A stretch of 64,000 nt of DNA from contig CAYPFY010000005.1 in the NCBI GenBank assembly GCA_964410105.1, forward strand, positions 35,427 to 99,426, in the 5' to 3' direction. This document shows, in pieces, positions 13,903 through 35,576 of this stretch; the first letter of the stretch is position 1; every line of letters starts with the position of its first letter. Both the position numbers and the translations under genes were made by a program. The notes beneath the pieces were generated by a model. That model did not search any database. It worked only from the letters and a program-made list of their open reading frames with translations, and was not told the origin of the DNA. The stretch comes from an uncultured Chlorobiaceae bacterium (GTDB lineage Bacteria > Bacteroidota > Ignavibacteria > UBA10030 > SZUA-254).

Positions 13903-16047
13903 TCACCGGACAAGGAGGAGTTTTCTGGCGGCGAAAAACGATCCGGATTGCAGCGTGCAGAGATAAACACCGCTCGGATACCCTTTCGCATCCCACGAAA
14001 TCTTGTAAAAACCCGGCTCCATTTCCTTTGAGACGATCGACGCGATCTCCCGCCCGATGAGATCGTAGATCCTGATCCTCACAAACCCTCGCCTTGGAAC
14101 TGCATACTCGAATGTCGTCCCTGGATTGAAGGGATTCGGGTAATTCTGGCTGAGTGAAAATTTTTCGGGGAGGGGTCGCGTTTCCCCCGCCGAGGTGATC
14201 ATCTCAGATAAAGGCCGCCGCCATACTCCACCTCCATAAATTCCGGCAAAAATTTCCGTGCCCCTGATAGCAAGCGAGCGAACATCGATATTCACAAGCC
14301 CTGCGACCGCCAGAGCCCAGTTCTGGCCGTTGTCGTTTGAAACGTATATCCCCCAGCCGATCGTGGCGGCAAAAATATTCGACCCTGAGATCGCCAGGGA
14401 GGAGATTCTCCTGTGATCGAGTCCGCTATTGATCTCTGACCAGCTCAGCCCCCGGTCGGTGGACAGGAAGACGCCGGCTCCATCTGTGCCGGCAAAAATG
14501 CTCGAATCCCTGACAGCAAGCGTTAGGATTCCGGAGAGTTGGGGAGGTGTAGGAAGGAGAGCCCAACTCACTCCCCCGTCGGTTGAACGAAAAATGCCCG
14601 GGCCCGAGCTTCCGGCAAGGACGGCAGGAACGCTTCCCGTGTCTCCGGGGATTACGGCCAGCGCTGATATCGTGGATGCTGTAAGTCCTGAGTCGGCGCT
14701 GAACCACGTGCTTCCGTCGTCGGTCGTCCTGAAAATTCCGTTCCCCTCAGTTCCCGCAAGGGCAATCGATCCCCCTGAGCCATCGGGGAATGAGGCGAGG
14801 GTGAGCACAGACATATTTTTCAGCCCGGGACCAAGCCACGTTGATCCGTTATCGGAAGAGACGAAGACACCTCCCCCGCTCGTTCCCGCGAAAATGGTCT
14901 CCCCGCTTTTCCTATCTCGTCCGACGGCAAGGGAGTAGGTGTCGTGGGTCGTCATCCCGCTTGTCCGTGTGGTCCATGCGGATCCTCCGTCGGTTGAACG
15001 GGAAACACCATTGATCGCACCTGCAAAAATCTCCGAATCGGTGACTGCAAGCGAGTGGACGAGAGTAGCGTTGAATCCTGCATTGCTCTCGGTCCAGGTC
15101 GACCCCTCATCGGTCGATCGGAATACGCCGCAGGCTTGCGTCCCGGCAAGCAGTATCCTCGCGCCGGAGATCTCGGCGAACACAGCTAGCGAGAAGACAT
15201 TGAGGTCGGTCAGGCCAGAGTCTGCGTGTTCCCAGTGGGCGCCCGAATTCGTCGAGCGAAAAACCCCATGTGAACCACCGACACAAACAGTATACTTGCC
15301 AAGATTGTTGGGCATTCCGACAATCGTTCGCACGTCGGCGTCGACGAGACCGGAATCGATCTCAAGCCAGCTGCCTCCCCTGTCGGAAGAGAGGTATACC
15401 CCTGAGCCAGCGGTGCCCGCAATAATCACCGTATCGAGGGCGAAAAGGGCCCGAATTCCGAAAGGCGGGAGATCCCCGGTGACATCGTTCCAGCTGATTC
15501 CATTATCAGTGGATCGATAAACCCCCGCGCCCGCTGCGCCAATAAAGATCTCCGTATCGAGCACAGCGACTGAGGTGAACCCGTCTTCCGGGAGGCCGGA
15601 CCTGGTTGTGTCCCAATTCATTCCGTTGTCGGTGGAAATGAACATACCCTGGTCAGTCCCCGCAAAAACGGTCGACCCTCTTGCGGCGAGGGACAGAATC
15701 GAGGCACTCCCGATCGGTCCGACAAAATTCTGGTACCAGGTGGATCCGCCATCGCTCGAGAAGAGGATGCCGTCGGAGCTCGTTCCGTAAAAGATTGACG
15801 AATCGTTGAATGCGAACGTCTGGACCGAAGAGCCAATGAAATCGTAGGCTGATTTCCAGCTCAGACCCTTGTCCGTTGAATGATAGAATCCCAGATCGGA
15901 CGTGCCGAGGAAGAGTTCAGAATCATGGACCCCAAACGACAGGACGAATCCGCCACGGGGGCCATTGGTCGGTTGCCACTGGGCAACGGATTTTAGGGAT
16001 GGAAAGGTCGCGGCGATGACCGTTAAGAGAATAAGCCGTGTTTTCAT
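13903..16047 (-). CDS. Secreted Asp-box (BNR) repeat beta-propeller protein with T9SS-type C-terminal domain
   Basis: Signal peptide (SVA|Q), 13 SxDxGxxW-type Asp-boxes counted, C-terminal SQNYPNPFNP...GVY...RKLLLVR. Confidence 0.85.
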   Translation of the reverse strand: MKTRLILLTVIAATFPSLKSVAQWQPTNGPRGGFVLSFGVHDSELFLGTSDLGFYHSTDKGLSWKSAYDFIGSSVQTFAFNDSSIFYGTSSDGILFSSDGGSTWYQNFVGPIGSASILSLAARGSTVFAGTDQGMFISTDNGMNWDTTRSGLPEDGFTSVAVLDTEIFIGAAGAGVYRSTDNGISWNDVTGDLPPFGIRALFALDTVIIAGTAGSGVYLSSDRGGSWLEIDSGLVDADVRTIVGMPNNLGKYTVCVGGSHGVFRSTNSGAHWEHADSGLTDLNVFSLAVFAEISGARILLAGTQACGVFRSTDEGSTWTESNAGFNATLVHSLAVTDSEIFAGAINGVSRSTDGGSAWTTRTSGMTTHDTYSLAVGRDRKSGETIFAGTSGGGVFVSSDNGSTWLGPGLKNMSVLTLASFPDGSGGSIALAGTEGNGIFRTTDDGSTWFSADSGLTASTISALAVIPGDTGSVPAVLAGSSGPGIFRSTDGGVSWALLPTPPQLSGILTLAVRDSSIFAGTDGAGVFLSTDRGLSWSEINSGLDHRRISSLAISGSNIFAATIGWGIYVSNDNGQNWALAVAGLVNIDVRSLAIRGTEIFAGIYGGGVWRRPLSEMITSAGETRPLPEKFSLSQNYPNPFNPGTTFEYAVPRRGFVRIRIYDLIGREIASIVSKEMEPGFYKISWDAKGYPSGVYLCTLQSGSFFAARKLLLVR

Positions 16048-16743: not shown

Positions 16744-16961
16744 ATGAGCCTCCTCATCATAACTGTATTGACTGCGATTCGCCGGGCTGAATTGTTCTGT
16801 CCGAACCCTCCGGCCTCCCGGCAGATCCTGGGCGCAACATACGGAAAAGATTTTTTTGTATCAAGCTCCGTTTCACCTCACCGGGCAGGGAGCATCTACC
16901 CCAAACGTTTTCCCGATGGCAAAAAGGCCAATCGAGCCGAGTAAGACCAAATGCGGTGAAT

Positions 16962-16990
16962 TTGCATCCTATTGCGTCGGAACATATATT
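16962..16990 (+). promoter_or_regulatory. Putative sigma70 promoter upstream of the TPP riboswitch (TTGCAT-N17-TATATT)
   Basis: Hexamers at 16962-16967 and 16985-16990, ending 11 nt before the aptamer P1. Confidence 0.65.
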
Positions 16991-17001
16991 GAAGCTGATC
17001 G

Positions 17002-17087
17002 CCGTTAGGGGTGTCCCGCCGGCAAACGCGGGACTGAGAATAATACCCTAGGAACCTGATCTGGATGATGCCAGCGTAGGGAAACGG
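17002..17087 (+). ncRNA. TPP riboswitch (THI element)
   Basis: P1 ccgtt/aacgg, GGGGTGTCCC...GGGACTGAGA, ACCC, CCTGATCTGGATGATGCCAGCGTAGGGAA; upstream of thiamine-related genes. Confidence 0.95.
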
Positions 17088-17095
17088 AATCCTGG

Positions 17096-17144
17096 AATGC
17101 CGTTTTTCTGATCCTCCCGATCAGAAAAGCGGCATTTGTTTTTT
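17096..17144 (+). terminator. Intrinsic terminator: riboswitch expression platform
   Basis: 18-bp stem aatgccgtttttctgatc / gatcagaaaagcggcatt (one G-U), 5-nt loop, then tgtttttt. Confidence 0.88.
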
Positions 17145-17155
17145 GGAGAGACATC

Positions 17156-19465
17156 ATGAAGAATCTCATCCTGTTACTCGTTGGGACTGTCACAATTCTG
17201 CACGCGCAGGACGCCTCCGGGCAGGACACTGCAATTTACTACTTCCCCCCCGTCACCGTCAGTCCGACGGCGGCGTTTGAGAGACAGACCCCTGTCACAT
17301 TCTCGAATTTGACCAGGGAGCAGATACAGGATCGCTACTCCATTCAGGATGTCCCGGTTTTGCTCTCTGAATTGCCGTCGATCACCTATTATTCGGAGAA
17401 TGGAAACGGCATCGGATACAGTCACCTGAACCTGCGGGGATTCGAGCAGCGCCGGCTCTCGATAATGGTCAACGGGGTTCCACAGAACGACCCGGAGGAT
17501 CATGACGTCTACTGGATCGATTTCCCCGATCTCATGGCGGGGGCGGAAAACATCCAGGTGCAGCGCGGGGCCGGGAGCGAATTCTACGGACCTCCTGCGA
17601 TAGGCGGTTCGATCAATATCATCACGAATCCGTTCAGTCAGAGGCCGGGGGTGCGCCTGGAGAGCTCCTTTGGTTTCCAGGAATTCGGGGATAGCAGCGA
17701 ATCGGTCATGCTCGGGACCCGGAAATTCCAGGCATCCGTCAATTCCGGGCTGATTGACCGCCGGTATCTGATATATGGAAAGCTCGGAAAAATCGTGAGC
17801 AACGGGTACAGAATAAACTCCTGGGCCGAGCTCAATTCCTACTTCCTCGGCGCCGTGCGGATTGATGAAAACATGACCACCCGCATCAATTTCTATGGGG
17901 GCCCCATTCAAGATGCCTTGGCCTACGTAGGGATCCCCAAGTCGTACAACGAGGACAAGCGGCTGCGGAGGATCAACTATAGCGACTGGGCATATGACAG
18001 CACGGGGATGAATCTTTCGTACAGCGTCCTGCAGAAGCCGCAGGCCACGGAGGAATTCTCGCAGCCTCACTACGAGCTTATTCATGACTGGAGAATATCG
18101 AGAGAAGTCGCGCTCCACAACACCCTTTTCTATCTGCAGGGAGACGGGTACTTTCTTTACGACGGCGACTGGATCCCGTATCCCGATGCGAACGGAAACC
18201 CGACCCCCTCCATACTCTGGTTTCGCAACAATGTGGGGTACGACTCCACCTTCGGCGTATCGACATTTCCTGCGTTCATCATCAGGGGCTTCGTCGGCAA
18301 CAAGCAATGGGGGTGGCTGCCGCACCTGGAGATAAACCATGGCACCGGGAATCTCATCCTCGGGGGCGAAGTCAGGATACACCGTTCCCTTCATTACGGT
18401 AAAATCGAGTATGCCTCGCAATACCCTTCCGCCTCCTTTGACCCCGACTTCAGGATCTACGAATACAACGGCGAGAAGGACATTTTTTCGCTCTATGGTC
18501 ATGAGCTGTACCGCGCAGACGAAAAGACAAACGTCATGGCGGAGATCCAGCTTGCCTGGAACCGTTACGGAATTCAAAACGAGAAATTTCTGGGGAACAA
18601 CTTTTCCTACCCCTATTTCTTCGTCAATCCCCGCATCGGGCTGAACGAGAATTTTTCCGACAACCTCAATGCTTACGCATCGGCAGCCTACACATCGAGG
18701 GAACCGACGCTCAGGAACCTCTATGCTGCGGAGGACACCTATTTTGGGGCAGCGCCGCAATTCAGGGGAGACACCACAGGCGGGGTCGTCCGCTATGACT
18801 TCACCCAGCCGCTGGCTCAGCCTGAGCATCTTCTTGACATCGAAGTGGGGGGGTCACTCAAGACTGTCAGGGCACAGCTTTCAGCAAGTTTCTTCTGGAT
18901 GGAATTCACCGATGAGCTCGTCAAGAGCGGGCAGGTGGACATCTTCGGCCAGCCTGTAACAGGCAATGCCGAGCGAACACGCCATCTTGGGGTCGAGATT
19001 GAGGGTTCGGCTGGGCTCTCGGATGCCATCACGATTGGGGGAAACGCGGCGATCTCGAGCAATCGTCTTATCCGGCACACCGAATACGTTCCTTCCACCG
19101 ATGCGACGGGGGCAGCGGTGTACGCGCCGGTTTCGCTCGACGGAAACCCGATCGCGGGCTTTCCCGACTTTCTCGGGAACCTGCGGCTCTCGTACCGGGG
19201 AGGAAGCATTGCGTCCTCGCTCACGGTCAAGTATGTGGGGAGTTTTTACACCGACAATTTCAAGAACGAGGCGAATAAGAACGACGACTATATCGTTGTC
19301 AACGGCGAAATCCTGTTGGATCTCCTAGGATTCAACTCGGAGTTCACCCTTCGGGGCGAGGTGCGGAATATATTTAACAGGCTGTACTTTGCTGGCGGGG
19401 AAGGGGAAAAATTTTTCCCGGCGGCCGAGCGGAATTATCTCTTCGGGATCGTGGCGAGATTCTGA
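17156..19465 (+). CDS. TonB-dependent receptor, probable thiamine uptake
   Basis: Signal peptide (LHA|Q), plug motifs LRGF..R...NGVP.ND and IQVQRG...GG.INI, C-terminal NIFNRLY...F; under TPP riboswitch control. Confidence 0.88.
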   Translation: MKNLILLLVGTVTILHAQDASGQDTAIYYFPPVTVSPTAAFERQTPVTFSNLTREQIQDRYSIQDVPVLLSELPSITYYSENGNGIGYSHLNLRGFEQRRLSIMVNGVPQNDPEDHDVYWIDFPDLMAGAENIQVQRGAGSEFYGPPAIGGSINIITNPFSQRPGVRLESSFGFQEFGDSSESVMLGTRKFQASVNSGLIDRRYLIYGKLGKIVSNGYRINSWAELNSYFLGAVRIDENMTTRINFYGGPIQDALAYVGIPKSYNEDKRLRRINYSDWAYDSTGMNLSYSVLQKPQATEEFSQPHYELIHDWRISREVALHNTLFYLQGDGYFLYDGDWIPYPDANGNPTPSILWFRNNVGYDSTFGVSTFPAFIIRGFVGNKQWGWLPHLEINHGTGNLILGGEVRIHRSLHYGKIEYASQYPSASFDPDFRIYEYNGEKDIFSLYGHELYRADEKTNVMAEIQLAWNRYGIQNEKFLGNNFSYPYFFVNPRIGLNENFSDNLNAYASAAYTSREPTLRNLYAAEDTYFGAAPQFRGDTTGGVVRYDFTQPLAQPEHLLDIEVGGSLKTVRAQLSASFFWMEFTDELVKSGQVDIFGQPVTGNAERTRHLGVEIEGSAGLSDAITIGGNAAISSNRLIRHTEYVPSTDATGAAVYAPVSLDGNPIAGFPDFLGNLRLSYRGGSIASSLTVKYVGSFYTDNFKNEANKNDDYIVVNGEILLDLLGFNSEFTLRGEVRNIFNRLYFAGGEGEKFFPAAERNYLFGIVARF

Positions 19466-20083
19466 ATGCGGGCCCTCATCATCGCCAACGGCTCTATTCC
19501 CGCCGCGGATCTAACCCGTAGGACAGCTGCGCGGTCGGGGCTGATCGTCTGCGCGGACGGCGGGGCAAACCATGCACGTGAATTGGAGATTGTTCCCCAC
19601 GTCATAATCGGTGATTTCGACTCCGTCGTGCCTTCGACACTGCAATACTTCAGCGGGGCAAGACAGCTCCGCATCGCAGATCAGGATAGCACAGACCTTG
19701 AGAAGGCCATCAAATTCTGCATCGAGCAAAAAGCATCGCAGATTGATGTGATCGGTGCCTCGGGAGACCGCGTGGACCATGTCACCGGCGCACTCGGATG
19801 TTTCAAGAAATTTCCGAAAGCTCACCTTGAGCTGATCGACAGCGTGGGGACGCTGAGCCGCATCGATGGTCTTGTCACATTCGAAGCTGCAGCGGGTGAG
19901 AAAATTTCGCTTATACCTCTTGAGCGCTGCACGGGGATTACGACGGAAAACCTGCTCTATCCTTTACAGGATGCCATGCTCGAGTTGGGAGTGCGGGAGG
20001 GTATCAGCAACCAGGCGGTAGGGCGCCCGGTGACAATCTCGGTCGTGACCGGAACACTGCTCCTTTACCGGTTTCACCGATGA
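19466..20083 (+). CDS. thiN: Thiamine pyrophosphokinase
   Basis: LIIANG, CADGGAN, IGDFDS, DQDSTDLEKA, GDRVDH, GISN motifs. Confidence 0.93.
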   Translation: MRALIIANGSIPAADLTRRTAARSGLIVCADGGANHARELEIVPHVIIGDFDSVVPSTLQYFSGARQLRIADQDSTDLEKAIKFCIEQKASQIDVIGASGDRVDHVTGALGCFKKFPKAHLELIDSVGTLSRIDGLVTFEAAAGEKISLIPLERCTGITTENLLYPLQDAMLELGVREGISNQAVGRPVTISVVTGTLLLYRFHR

Positions 20084-20123
20084 AGGCTCACCCGATTGTC
20101 GCCCGACGGAGGAGTAATCCCCG

Positions 20124-21548
20124 GTGATCCATCTTGCCCCTTCCGACATCGCAGTCATCTTCCTCTACTTCGGTGCTGTGATTTTTGTTGGTTTCCGGGC
20201 GGCCCGGAAGTCACGAGGCACCGAGGAGGATTTCCTTCTCGCAGGCCGATCGTTGACACTGCCGATTTTCGTCATGACCCTGGTATCCACCTGGTATGGA
20301 GGCATACTCGGAGTGGGAGAGTTTTCCTACCGGTACGGCATATCGAACTGGGTTGTGCAGGGCGTTCCATATTACATCTTTGCGGCCATTTTCGCTCTGT
20401 TCCTCGCCAAGAAGATAAGGGCAACGGGCCTCTACACGATCCCCGATAAGCTCGAGGCAGAATACGACAGGAAGACTGCGATTCTTGGATCGATCCTGAC
20501 CTTTATACTGATGACGCCCGCTCCCTACATCCTGATGCTGAGCGTGTTTCTTCAGATGCTCTTCGGATGGAGCATGGCTCTTTGCCTGTTTGTCACTGCG
20601 GTCGTGGCGGCCTCGTACCTTTATGTCGGCGGATTCCGATCTGATGTCGAGACTGACGTTCTCGAGTTTTTTCTCATGTTCGCCGGATTCGCGGTAATAC
20701 TTCCCTTCAGTTACATGAAATTCGGTGGAACAGATTTCCTCACCTCGCACCTCCCCCCCTTGCATCTCACATGGCACGGGGGCAATTCGGCGCAGTACAT
20801 CATAGTCTGGTTCTTCATTGCCCTCTGGACACTCGTCGACCCAGCGTTTCATCAGCGATGTTATGCAGCAAAGGATGGGTCTGTCGCGCAACGGGGGATT
20901 CTGATTTCCATCATATTCTGGCTCGCGTTTGATTTCTTGACCGCGACGGCCGGGCTTTACGCCCGGGCGGCGATCCCGGGCCTGAGCGAGCCGATGAGGG
21001 CCTATCCCCTGCTCGCGGAAACGGTGCTCCCCCCCCTAGCCAAGGGTCTCTTCTATGTCGGAATGCTTGCGACAATCATGTCGACACTCAACACACTAGC
21101 CTTTGTTTCGGCACAGACCCTAGGCAGGGATTTTTGGCTGCGTTTGAAGGGGATACCGCTGGGATCGGCCTCATCGGAACAATCATCTCTGCGTTCAACT
21201 CAGGCGTGTCTTGTCATTTCCTTTCTTTTGTCCATAGGCCTGGCCCTCTTGATACCGAGCGTGATCAACATGTGGTATACGATCGGCACGGTGATCATCC
21301 CGGGATTATTGATTCCATTAATGTCCAGTTATTTCGTGCGGTGGAAAATCGCGCCCGGCATGGCATTCCTTTCAATGCTATCAGGATGGTTGGTTTCGTC
21401 CGGGTGGTTAGTCGCGGGACAGGGTCAAGGGGGCGGCTATCCACTCAACGTTGAACCGATGTATCCCGGGCTGGCAGCATCGGCCTTTGTCTGGATCTGG
21501 GGACGGAGATTCTCTTCCCCAGATCAGACGCTGAATACGCAAGCCTAA
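20124..21548 (+). CDS. Sodium:solute symporter (SSS) family, probable thiamine or thiamine-precursor transporter
   Basis: FLLAGRSL, STWYGG, GGFRSDV.TD, QRCYAAK, ATIMSTL, about 13 TM helices. Confidence 0.88.
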   Translation: MIHLAPSDIAVIFLYFGAVIFVGFRAARKSRGTEEDFLLAGRSLTLPIFVMTLVSTWYGGILGVGEFSYRYGISNWVVQGVPYYIFAAIFALFLAKKIRATGLYTIPDKLEAEYDRKTAILGSILTFILMTPAPYILMLSVFLQMLFGWSMALCLFVTAVVAASYLYVGGFRSDVETDVLEFFLMFAGFAVILPFSYMKFGGTDFLTSHLPPLHLTWHGGNSAQYIIVWFFIALWTLVDPAFHQRCYAAKDGSVAQRGILISIIFWLAFDFLTATAGLYARAAIPGLSEPMRAYPLLAETVLPPLAKGLFYVGMLATIMSTLNTLAFVSAQTLGRDFWLRLKGIPLGSASSEQSSLRSTQACLVISFLLSIGLALLIPSVINMWYTIGTVIIPGLLIPLMSSYFVRWKIAPGMAFLSMLSGWLVSSGWLVAGQGQGGGYPLNVEPMYPGLAASAFVWIWGRRFSSPDQTLNTQA

Positions 21549-21722: not shown

Positions 21723-21757
21723 TAAAAAAGCGGCGGCTCCCCCATCGGAACCGCCGC
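21723..21757 (-). terminator. Intrinsic terminator of the beta-propeller gene
   Basis: Minus strand gcggcggttcc-loop-ggagccgccgc followed by tttttt, about 30 nt after the stop at 21789. Confidence 0.8.
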
Positions 21758-21788
21758 CCGTCCCTTGCCTCCACATAGGTAATAGCCG

Positions 21789-23435
21789 CTATTTCATGAG
21801 AAGCATCTTCTTCACCTGTTGAAACTTCCCGTTGTTTGCAACGATCCGATAAAAATACGTTCCGCTCGCAAGATCCGATGCGTTCACATCCACCTCATGG
21901 AGGCCCTGGGAGTAGTACTCGTTATGAACCAGGGTTCGCACTTCTCTCCCCAATAGGTCATAGATCGTTAGACTAACGGGTCCGGGTTCCCGAAGAGTGA
22001 ACCGTATCTTGGTAGCCGGATTGAAGGGATTCGGATAGTTCTGCGAGAGTTGATATTGATTCGGGTCGGATGCAGACTGTGGAGAACCCCCAACGAAGGC
22101 GGCGCGCGACGTAAAAGTACCTCCGGTATAGTACTTCACAAGGAACAGATCCTGCGGAAGCCCGCTGAGGGTATTCTGATTTGTGGAGCCGAAGAGCACC
22201 AGACTGCTGTCATTATTGCTCGACGCCATGCCGACGCAGAGATTGCCGAGGCCGCCACCTCCGGCATTGCTCGGATCGTATATGGTTTCCGATTGGAATG
22301 TGCCTGAGGAATTAAATCTGTCAAGAACATACTTCGTAGGACTGGCATTTGTCGTCCCGCTGGTATAGAAGTCCCCGGTTGTCCCATTAATCCTGATGGT
22401 AGTCCAGGTGGAGGGCGTCGTAGCATCTCCCGACCATGCGTTCACCCCTGTCGTCTTGTCGATCTTGAAAAACTGTGAGCCGTTTGCGTGATACCCAGCA
22501 GCATAAACGGCGTTGTTATCTATAGCCATTCCTCCCGACGCAAACTGGAACGATGAGCAATTATACGAGCGGTTCGCCCAGCTTTGAGTTCCCGAGGGGG
22601 TATATTTGATGGTGGCGACATCGGCGTCGCCGCACGACGCGTAGCTGGTGCCGGTTACATAGCATCCGGACGTGTCTGCGATCAGATTCAGAGGAAGGTC
22701 GGAGCCCCCATTATCGTAGGTTTTCACCCACTGCTGGGCAATATTCAGGTCATACTTCACGGTGAGATAGTTCGGATTGGAGCTCCCTGCCTTGGCGAGC
22801 ACATAGATCGCCGAATTGGGAACCAGGGCAGCGCCTACGACGATATCCGAGTCCCCGCTGTCGTAATGACTGTCTCCCTGGAAGCCGAGAACGGCGTCGT
22901 ATTTCAATATCGTGACGTCGTATTTGGTGGAAACAGTGACCCTGCTCATTCCGACAACGTAAAACACGTTTGATCCGGGTCCTGCTGGCAGGATTTTGAC
23001 TGCGTCGTCATTTCGGTTAAGGGAGTTATAGTCATACCGTTTCACGTTGGAATTGCTCATGACGGTTGTTCCCCCCGTATCGATAACAAAGGATGCTATG
23101 TCGTAATCGGTACCGGACTGGCTCTTCCCAGTAATAAACAGGTAGGAGCCCTGGACGGCGATTGATTTCGCCTGGTCGTTATTGCCATTGTCGTACGTCT
23201 GCAACCACTTCAGCACACCGTTCCGGTCGAACTTTGCAACAAGATAGTCATACTCATTCGACGTATTCTTGATCCACCCGGCGACATAAATATTGCCGTT
23301 TACATCGACCGCCGCGTCATTGATCTGGTCATCCTTTCCATAACCGTCAAGTTGCAGTTTAAATTTATATGTTGGTTGGCCGAACGCGCTCGTGAGGCCG
23401 ACGCAAAGAAGACCTATGAGAATAGAGAATTTCAT
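21789..23435 (-). CDS. Secreted beta-propeller (SBBP-like repeat) protein with T9SS-type C-terminal domain
   Basis: RBS GGAGG, ATG 23435, signal peptide (AFG|Q), repeats of the type D....AVD..GN.YV.G......D....K.D..G...W...YD, C-terminal SQNYPNPFNP...KKMLLMK. Confidence 0.85.
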   Translation of the reverse strand: MKFSILIGLLCVGLTSAFGQPTYKFKLQLDGYGKDDQINDAAVDVNGNIYVAGWIKNTSNEYDYLVAKFDRNGVLKWLQTYDNGNNDQAKSIAVQGSYLFITGKSQSGTDYDIASFVIDTGGTTVMSNSNVKRYDYNSLNRNDDAVKILPAGPGSNVFYVVGMSRVTVSTKYDVTILKYDAVLGFQGDSHYDSGDSDIVVGAALVPNSAIYVLAKAGSSNPNYLTVKYDLNIAQQWVKTYDNGGSDLPLNLIADTSGCYVTGTSYASCGDADVATIKYTPSGTQSWANRSYNCSSFQFASGGMAIDNNAVYAAGYHANGSQFFKIDKTTGVNAWSGDATTPSTWTTIRINGTTGDFYTSGTTNASPTKYVLDRFNSSGTFQSETIYDPSNAGGGGLGNLCVGMASSNNDSSLVLFGSTNQNTLSGLPQDLFLVKYYTGGTFTSRAAFVGGSPQSASDPNQYQLSQNYPNPFNPATKIRFTLREPGPVSLTIYDLLGREVRTLVHNEYYSQGLHEVDVNASDLASGTYFYRIVANNGKFQQVKKMLLMK

Positions 23436-23843
23436 TGCGACCTCCAATGGTTTTAGAGTTTTTTTCTGTTTTCCTGCCTGCGCAAAAGAAGGAGTGCGCT
23501 CTGGCGTGGCAGACGCACGGGCGACACGGATCATCCTCTCAGTCCGTCCCTTTCCAGTCTATGGTGAGACTTTTGCAAAAGTGCGCTGGATCCGTCGACA
23601 GCTATGGGTAGTGGGCAGGGAAGGCCCTTGCGAAATCGTCCCCAGAAACCGAGGCTCGATTACAGACCAGTTCCCCCGTCAACGCTTCTATGGCTTATGC
23701 ACTGACGACTGCCTCCCGGATGGGGGAGCCCCCGGCCCAAAGCTCTGCGAAACGAGATCTCTCTGCGCCTATCCTGGATTGTTACCCGGAGAATTCAGCC
23801 TCTCCGGGTTTCGAGGGTGAAGTGGTGAAACGAAGGTAATGTC

Positions 23844-34226: not shown

Positions 34227-35576
34227 TCATTGTCCCGATTTCGGGATGATGGCGAGAGTCGTTTGCCCGGACTTACCAAGAAACTCCCGCGCGGTCTTCT
34301 GCAAAAGTTCAGGAGTCACCTTGCGGATTTCGCTCTCAATCTTGTTGATGCGTGCCGGATCGTCGTCGAACAGGGCGAAGGAGGCGAGGAGATCGGCGCG
34401 CCCGAATCCATAAAACTCCGTCGCCATATCATAGAACCCCGACCGGAATTTCACCAACGCGCGTTTCATCGTTGCGGCGTCCACGGGCGAATTTCGGACC
34501 GATTCAATGACAGAATCGACCACGGAGACAATCGCCGATGGAGGAACGGCGGTGTCATGCACAAGGTTCAGCATCCAGAGCATCGGCCCGGCATAATCGA
34601 ACATATTTCCCAAAAGATTTATCCCACCGTCGACGGATTGCGCAAAACCATGTTTTTGGACGAGAGCATCGTGGAGCTTGCTGTCGGGTCCCTGGAGCAG
34701 GATCTGATCAAGGATTCCCATCGCGTAATACTCCGGCGTATTCCGTTCGGGCATATGGTACGCGATGGCGATCGCGGGCTGATTCGCCAGGGTGTCCCGT
34801 TTCGAAAAACTCTTCTTTTCTGTTTGTTTCGGTTCAGCGATGTCAGGTTTCGGCGGTTGCGGCGACGACGGAATCTTGGCGAAGTATTTGGAGATGAACC
34901 GCTTCGCTTCCGCGGGTTTAAAATCTCCGACGACGGCGAGGACGGCGTTATTCGGCGCGTAGTAGGTCGTGAAAAACCGTTGTACATCCTGGAGATTTGC
35001 CGAATCGAGATCCTTCAGATCGCCGTAAAAGTTATGGGCGTTAAACCAGTTGGTATTTGCGTACTGCGGCATATCGAGCCAGGGGAACCCGCCATACGGC
35101 TGGTTAAGGACATTCACCTTCACCTCGTTTTCCACCACCCCTTTCTGGTTGGTCAGGTTGTCCTGGGTGACGGCGAGACCTTTCATCCGATCGGCCTCGG
35201 CCCAGAGCATTGTTTCGAGCTTGTGGGAGGGAAGGATTTCGAAATAATTCGTGAAATCGAAGCGCGTCGAACCGTTCAGGGCTCCCCCGTTTTTCTGCAT
35301 CAGCTTGATGAACTCCATCTTGCCCAGGTTAGCGGAACCCTGGAACATCATATGTTCAAACAGGTGGGCGAATCCGGTACGGTCCCGCGGCTCGTTGCGG
35401 AATCCTATATTATAGTAGACGGCGACGGTAACGATTGGCGCGGAGGGATCGGGGGAGAGAACGACCTTCAGCCCGTTATCCAACCGATAATACTCAACCG
35501 GGACAGTGAAGGATTCCGGGGAGACCTTGCCCATGCCTGTGGCGGCGAGGAGGCAGGCCAGGGTGAGCGTGCGCAT
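34227..35576 (-). CDS. M16 family zinc peptidase, catalytic subunit
   Basis: TGFAHLFEHMMFQGS (HxxEH), NGST..D.TNY, EVKVN. Start at ATG 35576. Confidence 0.92.
   Translation of the reverse strand: MRTLTLACLLAATGMGKVSPESFTVPVEYYRLDNGLKVVLSPDPSAPIVTVAVYYNIGFRNEPRDRTGFAHLFEHMMFQGSANLGKMEFIKLMQKNGGALNGSTRFDFTNYFEILPSHKLETMLWAEADRMKGLAVTQDNLTNQKGVVENEVKVNVLNQPYGGFPWLDMPQYANTNWFNAHNFYGDLKDLDSANLQDVQRFFTTYYAPNNAVLAVVGDFKPAEAKRFISKYFAKIPSSPQPPKPDIAEPKQTEKKSFSKRDTLANQPAIAIAYHMPERNTPEYYAMGILDQILLQGPDSKLHDALVQKHGFAQSVDGGINLLGNMFDYAGPMLWMLNLVHDTAVPPSAIVSVVDSVIESVRNSPVDAATMKRALVKFRSGFYDMATEFYGFGRADLLASFALFDDDPARINKIESEIRKVTPELLQKTAREFLGKSGQTTLAIIPKSGQ

Follow-up and report, generated by a model that had tools for sequence, protein, structure and literature searches.

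A TPP-riboswitch operon with a probable role in thiamine scavenging, and a sodium:solute symporter predicted to stand in for PnuT, in an uncultured Ignavibacteria-group bacterium

A stretch of 64,000 nucleotides, called the window below, was analysed from contig CAYPFY010000005.1 (assembly GCA_964410105.1, forward strand, positions 35,427 to 99,426), and all coordinates given without a locus label refer to the window. It contains a thiamine pyrophosphate (TPP) riboswitch followed by the genes for a TonB-dependent receptor, a thiamine pyrophosphokinase (TPK) and a symporter of the sodium:solute symporter (SSS) family. The locus is read, with a probability of roughly 0.75, as an operon with which an uncultured member of the Ignavibacteria group (GTDB phylum Bacteroidota), auxotrophic for thiamine, scavenges this vitamin, and in which the SSS protein is a non-orthologous replacement of PnuT. 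Comparative evidence points with much the same strength to inward transport of thiamine by this protein, which is very probably the inner-membrane thiamine importer.

Gene order and strand were taken from the list of open reading frames (ORFs) and from family searches. The operon consists of the following elements:

16997 to 17099, plus strand: TPP riboswitch aptamer (THI element), RF00059
17095 to 17147, plus strand: expression platform with a 19-bp intrinsic-terminator hairpin (17095-17137) and a U-run, from a terminator scan
17156 to 19465, plus strand: TonB-dependent outer-membrane receptor of the Omr1/OMthi type, 769 aa, with Plug and TonB_dep_Rec_b-barrel domains
19466 to 20083, plus strand: thiamine pyrophosphokinase (TPK/ThiN/Tnr3), 205 aa, TIGR01378
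20084 to 20123, plus strand: spacer of 40 nt between the TPK and SSS genes with a GGAGG Shine-Dalgarno-like motif, from reading of the sequence
20124 to 21548, plus strand: SSS-family symporter, 474 aa, predicted inner-membrane Na+:thiamine importer, PF00474 (SSF)

The receptor has a signal-like N-terminus, a Plug domain and a 22-strand barrel, and its gene lies directly behind the riboswitch. Its TGA stop codon abuts the ATG of the TPK gene with a gap of 0 nt. TPK scored 143.7 bits with TIGR01378 (cut-off 76.4) and carries both Pfam domains, the catalytic PF04263 and the B1-binding PF04265. The SSS protein matched PF00474 with 105.9 bits, above the Pfam threshold, and the GGAGG motif is located about 10 nt 5' of its GTG start codon.

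The host assembly (3.50 Mb, 38 contigs, 99.03% complete) was searched as a whole for families that could provide TPP by other routes. Neither thiE nor thiC was found in it. ThiD was represented only by a 32-bit match against a cut-off of 205, ThiG only by a 21-bit match, and ThiM reached 24.7 bits, below its cut-off. PnuC/PnuT (PF04973) had no match anywhere in the assembly, which also yielded neither ThiT nor ThiB. Only a 186-aa remnant of thiL was present, scoring 117.5 bits against a cut-off of 184. TPK is encoded by a single-copy gene. As far as a draft genome can show, no way to TPP is visible other than phosphorylation of imported free thiamine by this one TPK. The only riboswitch-controlled import candidates in the genome are the receptor and the SSS protein of the operon. 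Taken together, this argues for thiamine itself, and not a precursor, as the cargo.

The ThiL remnant lies outside the window on contig C12 (L111:1288-1848, plus strand). It matches the model only at the N-terminal (positions 27-86) and C-terminal (207-320) ends and resembles a relic, shortened by an internal deletion, of a thiamine pathway that was lost. The single TenA-family match of the host was rejected as TenA, since TIGR04305 (251 bits) identifies it as a folate-related protein of the CADD type.

The position of the SSS gene is taken by another carrier gene in two genomes of the host's order. In G079 and G070, a TPP riboswitch, the receptor gene and the TPK gene are followed immediately by a PnuC gene. 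The receptors of these operons are 49-54% and the TPKs 39-41% identical to those of the host operon. Their gene order is that known from Bacteroides (PMC5613172), and the exchange of SSS for PnuC in this slot amounts to a replacement in place. The wider distribution was determined by searches for thiE, the SSS protein and the Pnu family in 81 genomes of the host's class with a completeness of 90% or more. The SSS protein without thiE was present in 49 of these genomes and thiE without the SSS protein in 21. Both were found in five genomes and neither in six, and all six of the latter carried a PnuC-family gene.

The only other PnuC match in the sample (G001:C12:28023-28562) comes from a genome that also has the SSS gene. 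Its reading frame has an internal TGA, and it may be a decaying copy. A further gene arrangement was observed in two genomes from a single genus of family f10 (L121:3621-5387 and L122:4500-5746), where a lone TPP riboswitch and a receptor orthologue are followed by two to three ORFs of about 180-217 aa without a Pfam match. Since these genomes possess neither the SSS protein nor thiE, the ORFs are candidates for another component of thiamine uptake.

A scan with one genome per species provided 80 loci with SSS relatives of 49-79% identity. They originated from metagenome-assembled genomes (MAGs) of uncultured Ignavibacteria, Kryptonia and 'Bacteroidota' and from one Armatimonadota MAG. The first-pass annotation, made from the window sequence without database searches, had described a riboswitch before the receptor, TPK and SSS genes with gaps of 0 and 40 nt, and every detail of this was borne out by Rfam, the ORFs and the protein families. 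The comparison of related regulons, which it had named as a check, agreed: in 71 of the 80 loci the SSS gene directly follows the TPK gene, and a TPP riboswitch lies upstream on the same strand in 63, as detected with a covariance model built from nine aptamers. A receptor gene precedes TPK in 67 loci, and most of the others are interrupted by contig ends. The arrangement is far beyond chance and recurs in most of the related loci. A regular expression written by hand to capture the TPP core had matched none of the 80 loci and was superseded by the Rfam scans and the covariance model. Receptor orthologues with 40-63% identity stand behind TPP riboswitches in operons with SSS as well as in those with PnuC as the inner-membrane gene.

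The gap between the TPK and SSS genes has a median of 6 nt among the relatives, and 31 pairs overlap, 27 by 4 nt and four by 1 nt. Such short or overlapping junctions are a signature of translationally coupled genes on one transcript, and co-transcription of the three genes is accordingly probable. The spacer in the window is longer. Together with its own Shine-Dalgarno-like motif, the 40-nt gap would be consistent with separate transcription of the SSS gene, or with a passenger that transports an unrelated substrate such as pantothenate, proline, acetate or choline. However, a scan of the gap (20084-20123) for a terminator-like hairpin or a promoter-like site found none. The linkage to TPK is moreover kept, often with overlapping stop and start codons, across lineages in which the envelope partners differ, and a passenger or a separately transcribed gene is considered highly unlikely.

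Several loci outside the clade of these relatives illustrate the exchange of partners. L084 and L085 comprise a TPP riboswitch, a prepilin-type N_methyl/SBP_bac_10 protein, TPK and an SSS protein with 47% identity, and no TonB receptor (L084:1724-4800). In L087, TPK and SSS occur with a CarboxypepD_reg-type receptor and a partial TPP riboswitch match at the contig edge. In L089 (837-6416), a 687-aa protein without a Pfam match and a Toluene_X/TraF_2/DUF5723-like outer-membrane protein precede TPK and SSS in the absence of a TonB receptor; a TPP riboswitch was not detected at this locus, the upstream end of which is near the contig edge. L091 (1475-5712) encodes a PRK-like kinase, TPK, SSS and a short-chain dehydrogenase. 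By gene context alone, the dehydrogenase recalls OarX, a thiamine-salvage candidate that clusters with thiV (PMC11223231). An extended form of the operon was found under a TPP riboswitch in an Ignavibacterium album MAG (L108, identical to L049; 2936-10296). Its genes encode, in this order, a CarboxypepD_reg-type TonB receptor, a SAM methyltransferase, an AIRS-family (ThiL-like) protein, a TMP-TENI (ThiE/TenI-like) protein, TPK and SSS. In that lineage, the insertion of three genes points to salvage of something beyond intact thiamine.

Two apparent gene fusions were rejected. A single frame of 683 aa joins TPK and SSS in L021 (5356-7407). The 100%-identical SSS protein is a stand-alone protein of 468 aa in the protein database, and no fused TPK-SSS protein was present among the top 120 protein-database matches. 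The single frame is probably a local difference or mutation, or an assembly error. The metagenomic protein P0141 (1238 aa) comprises an SSS domain followed by Plug and TonB barrel domains and would thus combine an inner-membrane and an outer-membrane protein in one chain, which is implausible. It probably represents two adjacent genes read through, a gene-call artefact that shows SSS-receptor adjacency in another lineage.

The SSS protein was assigned to its family (PF00474/TIGR00813) by the SSF domain and conserved Na2-site hydroxyls in transmembrane helix 8 (TM8). It is not a PnuT (PF04973) protein, the carrier domain being PF00474. Its best specific NCBIfam match was the pantothenate symporter family PanF (TIGR02119) and its closest solved structure by sequence was that of sfCHT, a choline transporter from bacteria (9rws, E 1.8e-16), with SGLT1 and human CHT1 next. 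Both matches would suit a passenger with an unrelated substrate. However, the protein reached only 91.5 bits with PanF, far under the cut-off of 328.05, and 52.9 bits with PutP (TIGR02121), for which the cut-off is 515.5; it is also below the cut-off of PRK10484. Nor does it preserve the chloride loop of CHT1 or two of the tryptophans of its cage.

Residues were compared via printed alignments with the structures of CHT1/SLC5A7 and sfCHT (PDB 9rws, 8j74 and 9bfi). S320 and T321 of the SSS protein align with the Na2-site serines S346/S347 of CHT1 and S392/S393 of SGLT1, and also with those of PutP. Among 79 orthologues, position 320 is occupied by Ser in 75 and position 321 by Ser or Thr in all. 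The CHT1 site consists of an aromatic cage of W62, Y67, Y91, W141, W254 and W406 and a chloride loop, 63-VGGGY-67 (PMC11589582). Three of these six aromatics, W62, Y91 and W406, align with W57, Y83 and W384 of the SSS protein. W57 and Y83 are each kept in 78 of the 79 orthologues, and W384 and D239 in all of them. Choline and thiamine are both organic cations, choline being a quaternary ammonium compound. In contrast, W141 and W254 align with T131 and D239, and the loop corresponding to VGGGY is two residues shorter, with Y67 among the missing residues. Owing to the low identity, the SSS protein is not regarded as a member of the CHT family. A Na+-coupled carrier with an aromatic and acidic pocket would fit a cationic vitamin, and both the thiamine substrate and the coupling to sodium are predicted. 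A more detailed proposal is favoured at somewhat better than even odds. The subfamily would form a distinct, unnamed clade of Na+:thiamine symporters, nearer to CHT1 than to ThiV/SSSP, that replaced PnuT in place while riboswitch, receptor and kinase were otherwise conserved in the operon. In Ignavibacteria, Kryptonia and several other phyla with thiamine auxotrophy, it would be the principal carrier of thiamine in the inner membrane, and the conserved W57, Y83, W384, E66 and D239 would make up the site for the thiazolium cation.

The operon follows the logic of a characterised system. In Bacteroides, OMthi (BT2390), PnuT (BT2396) and Tnr3/TPK (BT2397) provide TPP-riboswitch-controlled thiamine acquisition (Costliow and Degnan 2017, PMC5613172), and most gut Bacteroidetes keep the three genes as a single operon (PMC5613172). 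The OMthi receptor has genetic support in B. thetaiotaomicron (PMC5613172). A riboswitch-controlled receptor, an inner-membrane carrier and TPK are common to both systems. The carriers differ, PnuT being a Pnu facilitator of about 190 aa and the protein described here an SSS protein of 474 aa from the LeuT-fold superfamily, presumably coupled to Na+. The first-pass annotation had placed the SSS protein in the inner-membrane role of PnuT, which is upheld by PnuC in the same slot of sister genomes and by the lack of another visible TPP route in the host. It had also counted two orphan transporters. This is retained for the SSS protein, which now reads as a putative thiamine importer, but not for the receptor, which by its domains and its position behind the riboswitch belongs with the Omr1/OMthi (BT2390) type of TPP-regulated receptors (PMC5613172). 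Orthology with BT2390 itself is possible and has indirect support from the 49-54% identical receptors at the head of PnuC-type operons in the host's order.

The first-pass annotation was overstated on a second point. The same type of locus has been in print since 2017 for Caldithrix abyssi, where Cabys_3975-3977 comprise a TPP riboswitch, a TonB receptor, a sodium-solute symporter and TPK (Kublanov et al. 2017, PMC5317091). Its authors interpreted it as candidate thiamine transport of an organism predicted to be auxotrophic for thiamine; their argument concerned the receptor, and the symporter was only listed (PMC5317091). The gene set is the same as in the window and the phylum is different; the two symporters are likened here by the description of the locus alone.

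SSS proteins have been connected with thiamine in another context. The ThiV of Methylobacillus flagellatus was reportedly described by Rodionov in 2002. Such proteins share with the one studied here the SSS family, a TPP riboswitch and a neighbourhood of thiamine genes, and were proposed as carriers of thiamine or its pyrimidine moiety. Canonical ThiV corresponds to the SSSP clade, with representatives in M. flagellatus, SAR11 (SAR11_0811) and algae (PMC4260697), and ThiV is listed among the B1 transporters (PMC6593275). The SAR11 protein is held to carry the pyrimidine precursor HMP (PMC11452348). The canonical genes cluster with thiD, thiE, thiM, tenA and thiG in HMP auxotrophs, whereas the SSS gene here has TPK as its partner and occurs in full auxotrophs. 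The alignment printed in PMC11452348, read by eye, shows a Dur3-like unwound TM1 in SAR11 ThiV, SLIASALGAW, as opposed to TLVSTWYGG in the present family. The SSSP signature residues Tyr78, Asp139 and Phe254 (SiaT numbering) were likewise compared by eye only. Judged from these segments, the SSS protein does not look like a canonical ThiV/SSSP. The likeness to ThiV noted in the first-pass annotation therefore stands in its functional part, an SSS protein under a TPP riboswitch, and not as a resemblance to SSSP.

The ThiV case raises the question of whether the SSS protein imports a thiamine-related compound, i.e. HMP, the thiazole, a degradation product, thiamine monophosphate or TPP, rather than free thiamine. 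For other SSS proteins controlled by TPP riboswitches, transport of HMP has been proposed (PMC11452348, PMC4260697), the L108 operon includes ThiE/TenI-like, AIRS (ThiL-like) and methyltransferase genes, and thiE occurs in five of the 54 SSS-bearing genomes. However, the host has no thiD, thiE, thiM or tenA with which to use precursors, and the invariant partner TPK acts on free thiamine. In the sister operons, the same slot is filled by PnuC, the family of the thiamine carrier PnuT, and the TM1 core is unlike that of SAR11 ThiV. Import of a precursor or derivative was thus rated as unlikely.

A number of observations weigh against thiamine import by an SSS protein in the place of PnuT. In four of the six genomes with neither SSS nor thiE, PnuC is located away from the TPP riboswitch, receptor and TPK genes, and the single TPP riboswitch heads the orthologous receptor gene alone. 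The complementarity of SSS and PnuC is thus clean in only two genomes. The co-occurrence of thiE and SSS in five genomes and the additional genes of L108 leave a wider substrate range possible. Distant members of the SSS clade (up to 40% identity; P0219, P0139, P0199, P0204, P0257 and P0189) have no TPK gene or TPP riboswitch nearby, which also speaks for a passenger and restricts the demonstrated thiamine link to part of the clade. No clean residue signature separates TPK-linked from unlinked SSS members. Most pocket candidates are common to both and are kept in unlinked distant relatives, so that they do not constitute a signature of thiamine specificity. Related genomes are not independent samples, and the counts are accordingly given without statistics. 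No published experiment, name or phylogeny was found for this SSS subfamily in a literature search that left subscription journals mostly outside.

The riboswitch is the sole Rfam family match in the window and, according to a search of the whole assembly, the only TPP riboswitch of the host genome. It matched RF00059 at 16997-17099 on the plus strand in full length (model positions 1-105) with 72.1 bits against a gathering score of 54.3 and an E-value of 3.1e-12. Among 66 homologous aptamers, 96% of the cells in the aptamer helices were paired and 15 of 24 pairs showed compensatory changes, in an alignment that was fitted to the covariance model and thereby favours the structure. The covariation value was reached by none of 500 shuffles, and slid controls paired at 31-53%. 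Behind the aptamer, the 19-bp hairpin at 17095-17137 is followed by GTTTTTTGG, 9 nt ahead of the first start codon. The hairpin dominates the minimum-energy fold of the leader (z -3.2). Its 5' arm contains GCCGUUUUU, which, read by eye, can pair alternatively with GGAAACGG, the 3' strand of the aptamer helix P1. A comparable hairpin and T-run behind the aptamer were detected in 36 of 63 relatives with a crude script. Owing to the terminator hairpin and the alternative pairing of P1, the leader is read as the usual transcription-termination design. The antiterminator pairing is predicted from the sequence, and TPP-dependent termination at the predicted hairpin is the probable mode of control.

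From these elements, the following course of regulation and uptake is proposed. At low cellular TPP, the antiterminator would form in the leader and the three genes would be transcribed as one mRNA. The Omr1/OMthi-type TonB-dependent receptor would capture thiamine at the outer membrane, and the SSS protein would move it over the inner membrane, driven by the sodium gradient. TPK would then convert thiamine directly into TPP. Rising TPP would bind to the aptamer, close P1 and free the 19-bp terminator, and transcription would halt before the receptor gene. The direction of transport was considered separately, as the SSS protein might mainly export or exchange thiamine or act as a facilitator instead of a concentrative importer. 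Excretion has been raised as a role of some secondary vitamin transporters (PMC6593275), and PnuT is presented as a facilitator whose uptake depends on the kinase for metabolic trapping (PMC5749112). However, an auxotrophic host has nothing to export, the operon would be switched on by low TPP, and the conserved Na2 site fits inward symport. Export, exchange or facilitation was regarded as extremely improbable.

Two further features were recorded at the borders of the operon:

16961 to 16990, plus strand: promoter-like site, TTTGCA-18 nt-TATATT, predicted by a consensus scan with 9 of 12 matches to a consensus that is not of the Bacteroidota type
21728 to 21759, minus strand: GC-rich hairpin between the SSS gene and the convergent gene for a cargo protein of the type IX secretion system, from a terminator scan, with the T-run on the minus strand

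The gene downstream of SSS is convergent, and the GC-rich hairpin is the terminator of this minus-strand gene. It may also end the operon transcript; its role there is uncertain as the plus strand has no T-run after the hairpin. The flanking genes on both sides (13903-16047 and 21789-23534, both minus strand) are unrelated to the operon. Their products, a BNR/Sortilin-type glycosidase-like and a beta-propeller protein, are secreted and bear C-terminal sorting domains of type IX secretion, by which the organism is assigned to the Bacteroidota in the sense of GTDB.

Thiamine auxotrophy is common among bacteria of the environment. For scoring genomes, surveys of B1 exchange use a set list of transporters, including ThiBPQ, ThiT, PnuT, ThiV, Omr1 and others. 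The SSS subfamily is not on that list, yet in two thirds of the sampled Bacteroidota class, as well as in other phyla, it appears to carry thiamine across the inner membrane. If this is true, such organisms would be scored as having an outer-membrane receptor but no passage through the inner membrane, and a large group of proteins that is now labelled only as sodium:solute symporters would gain a substrate.

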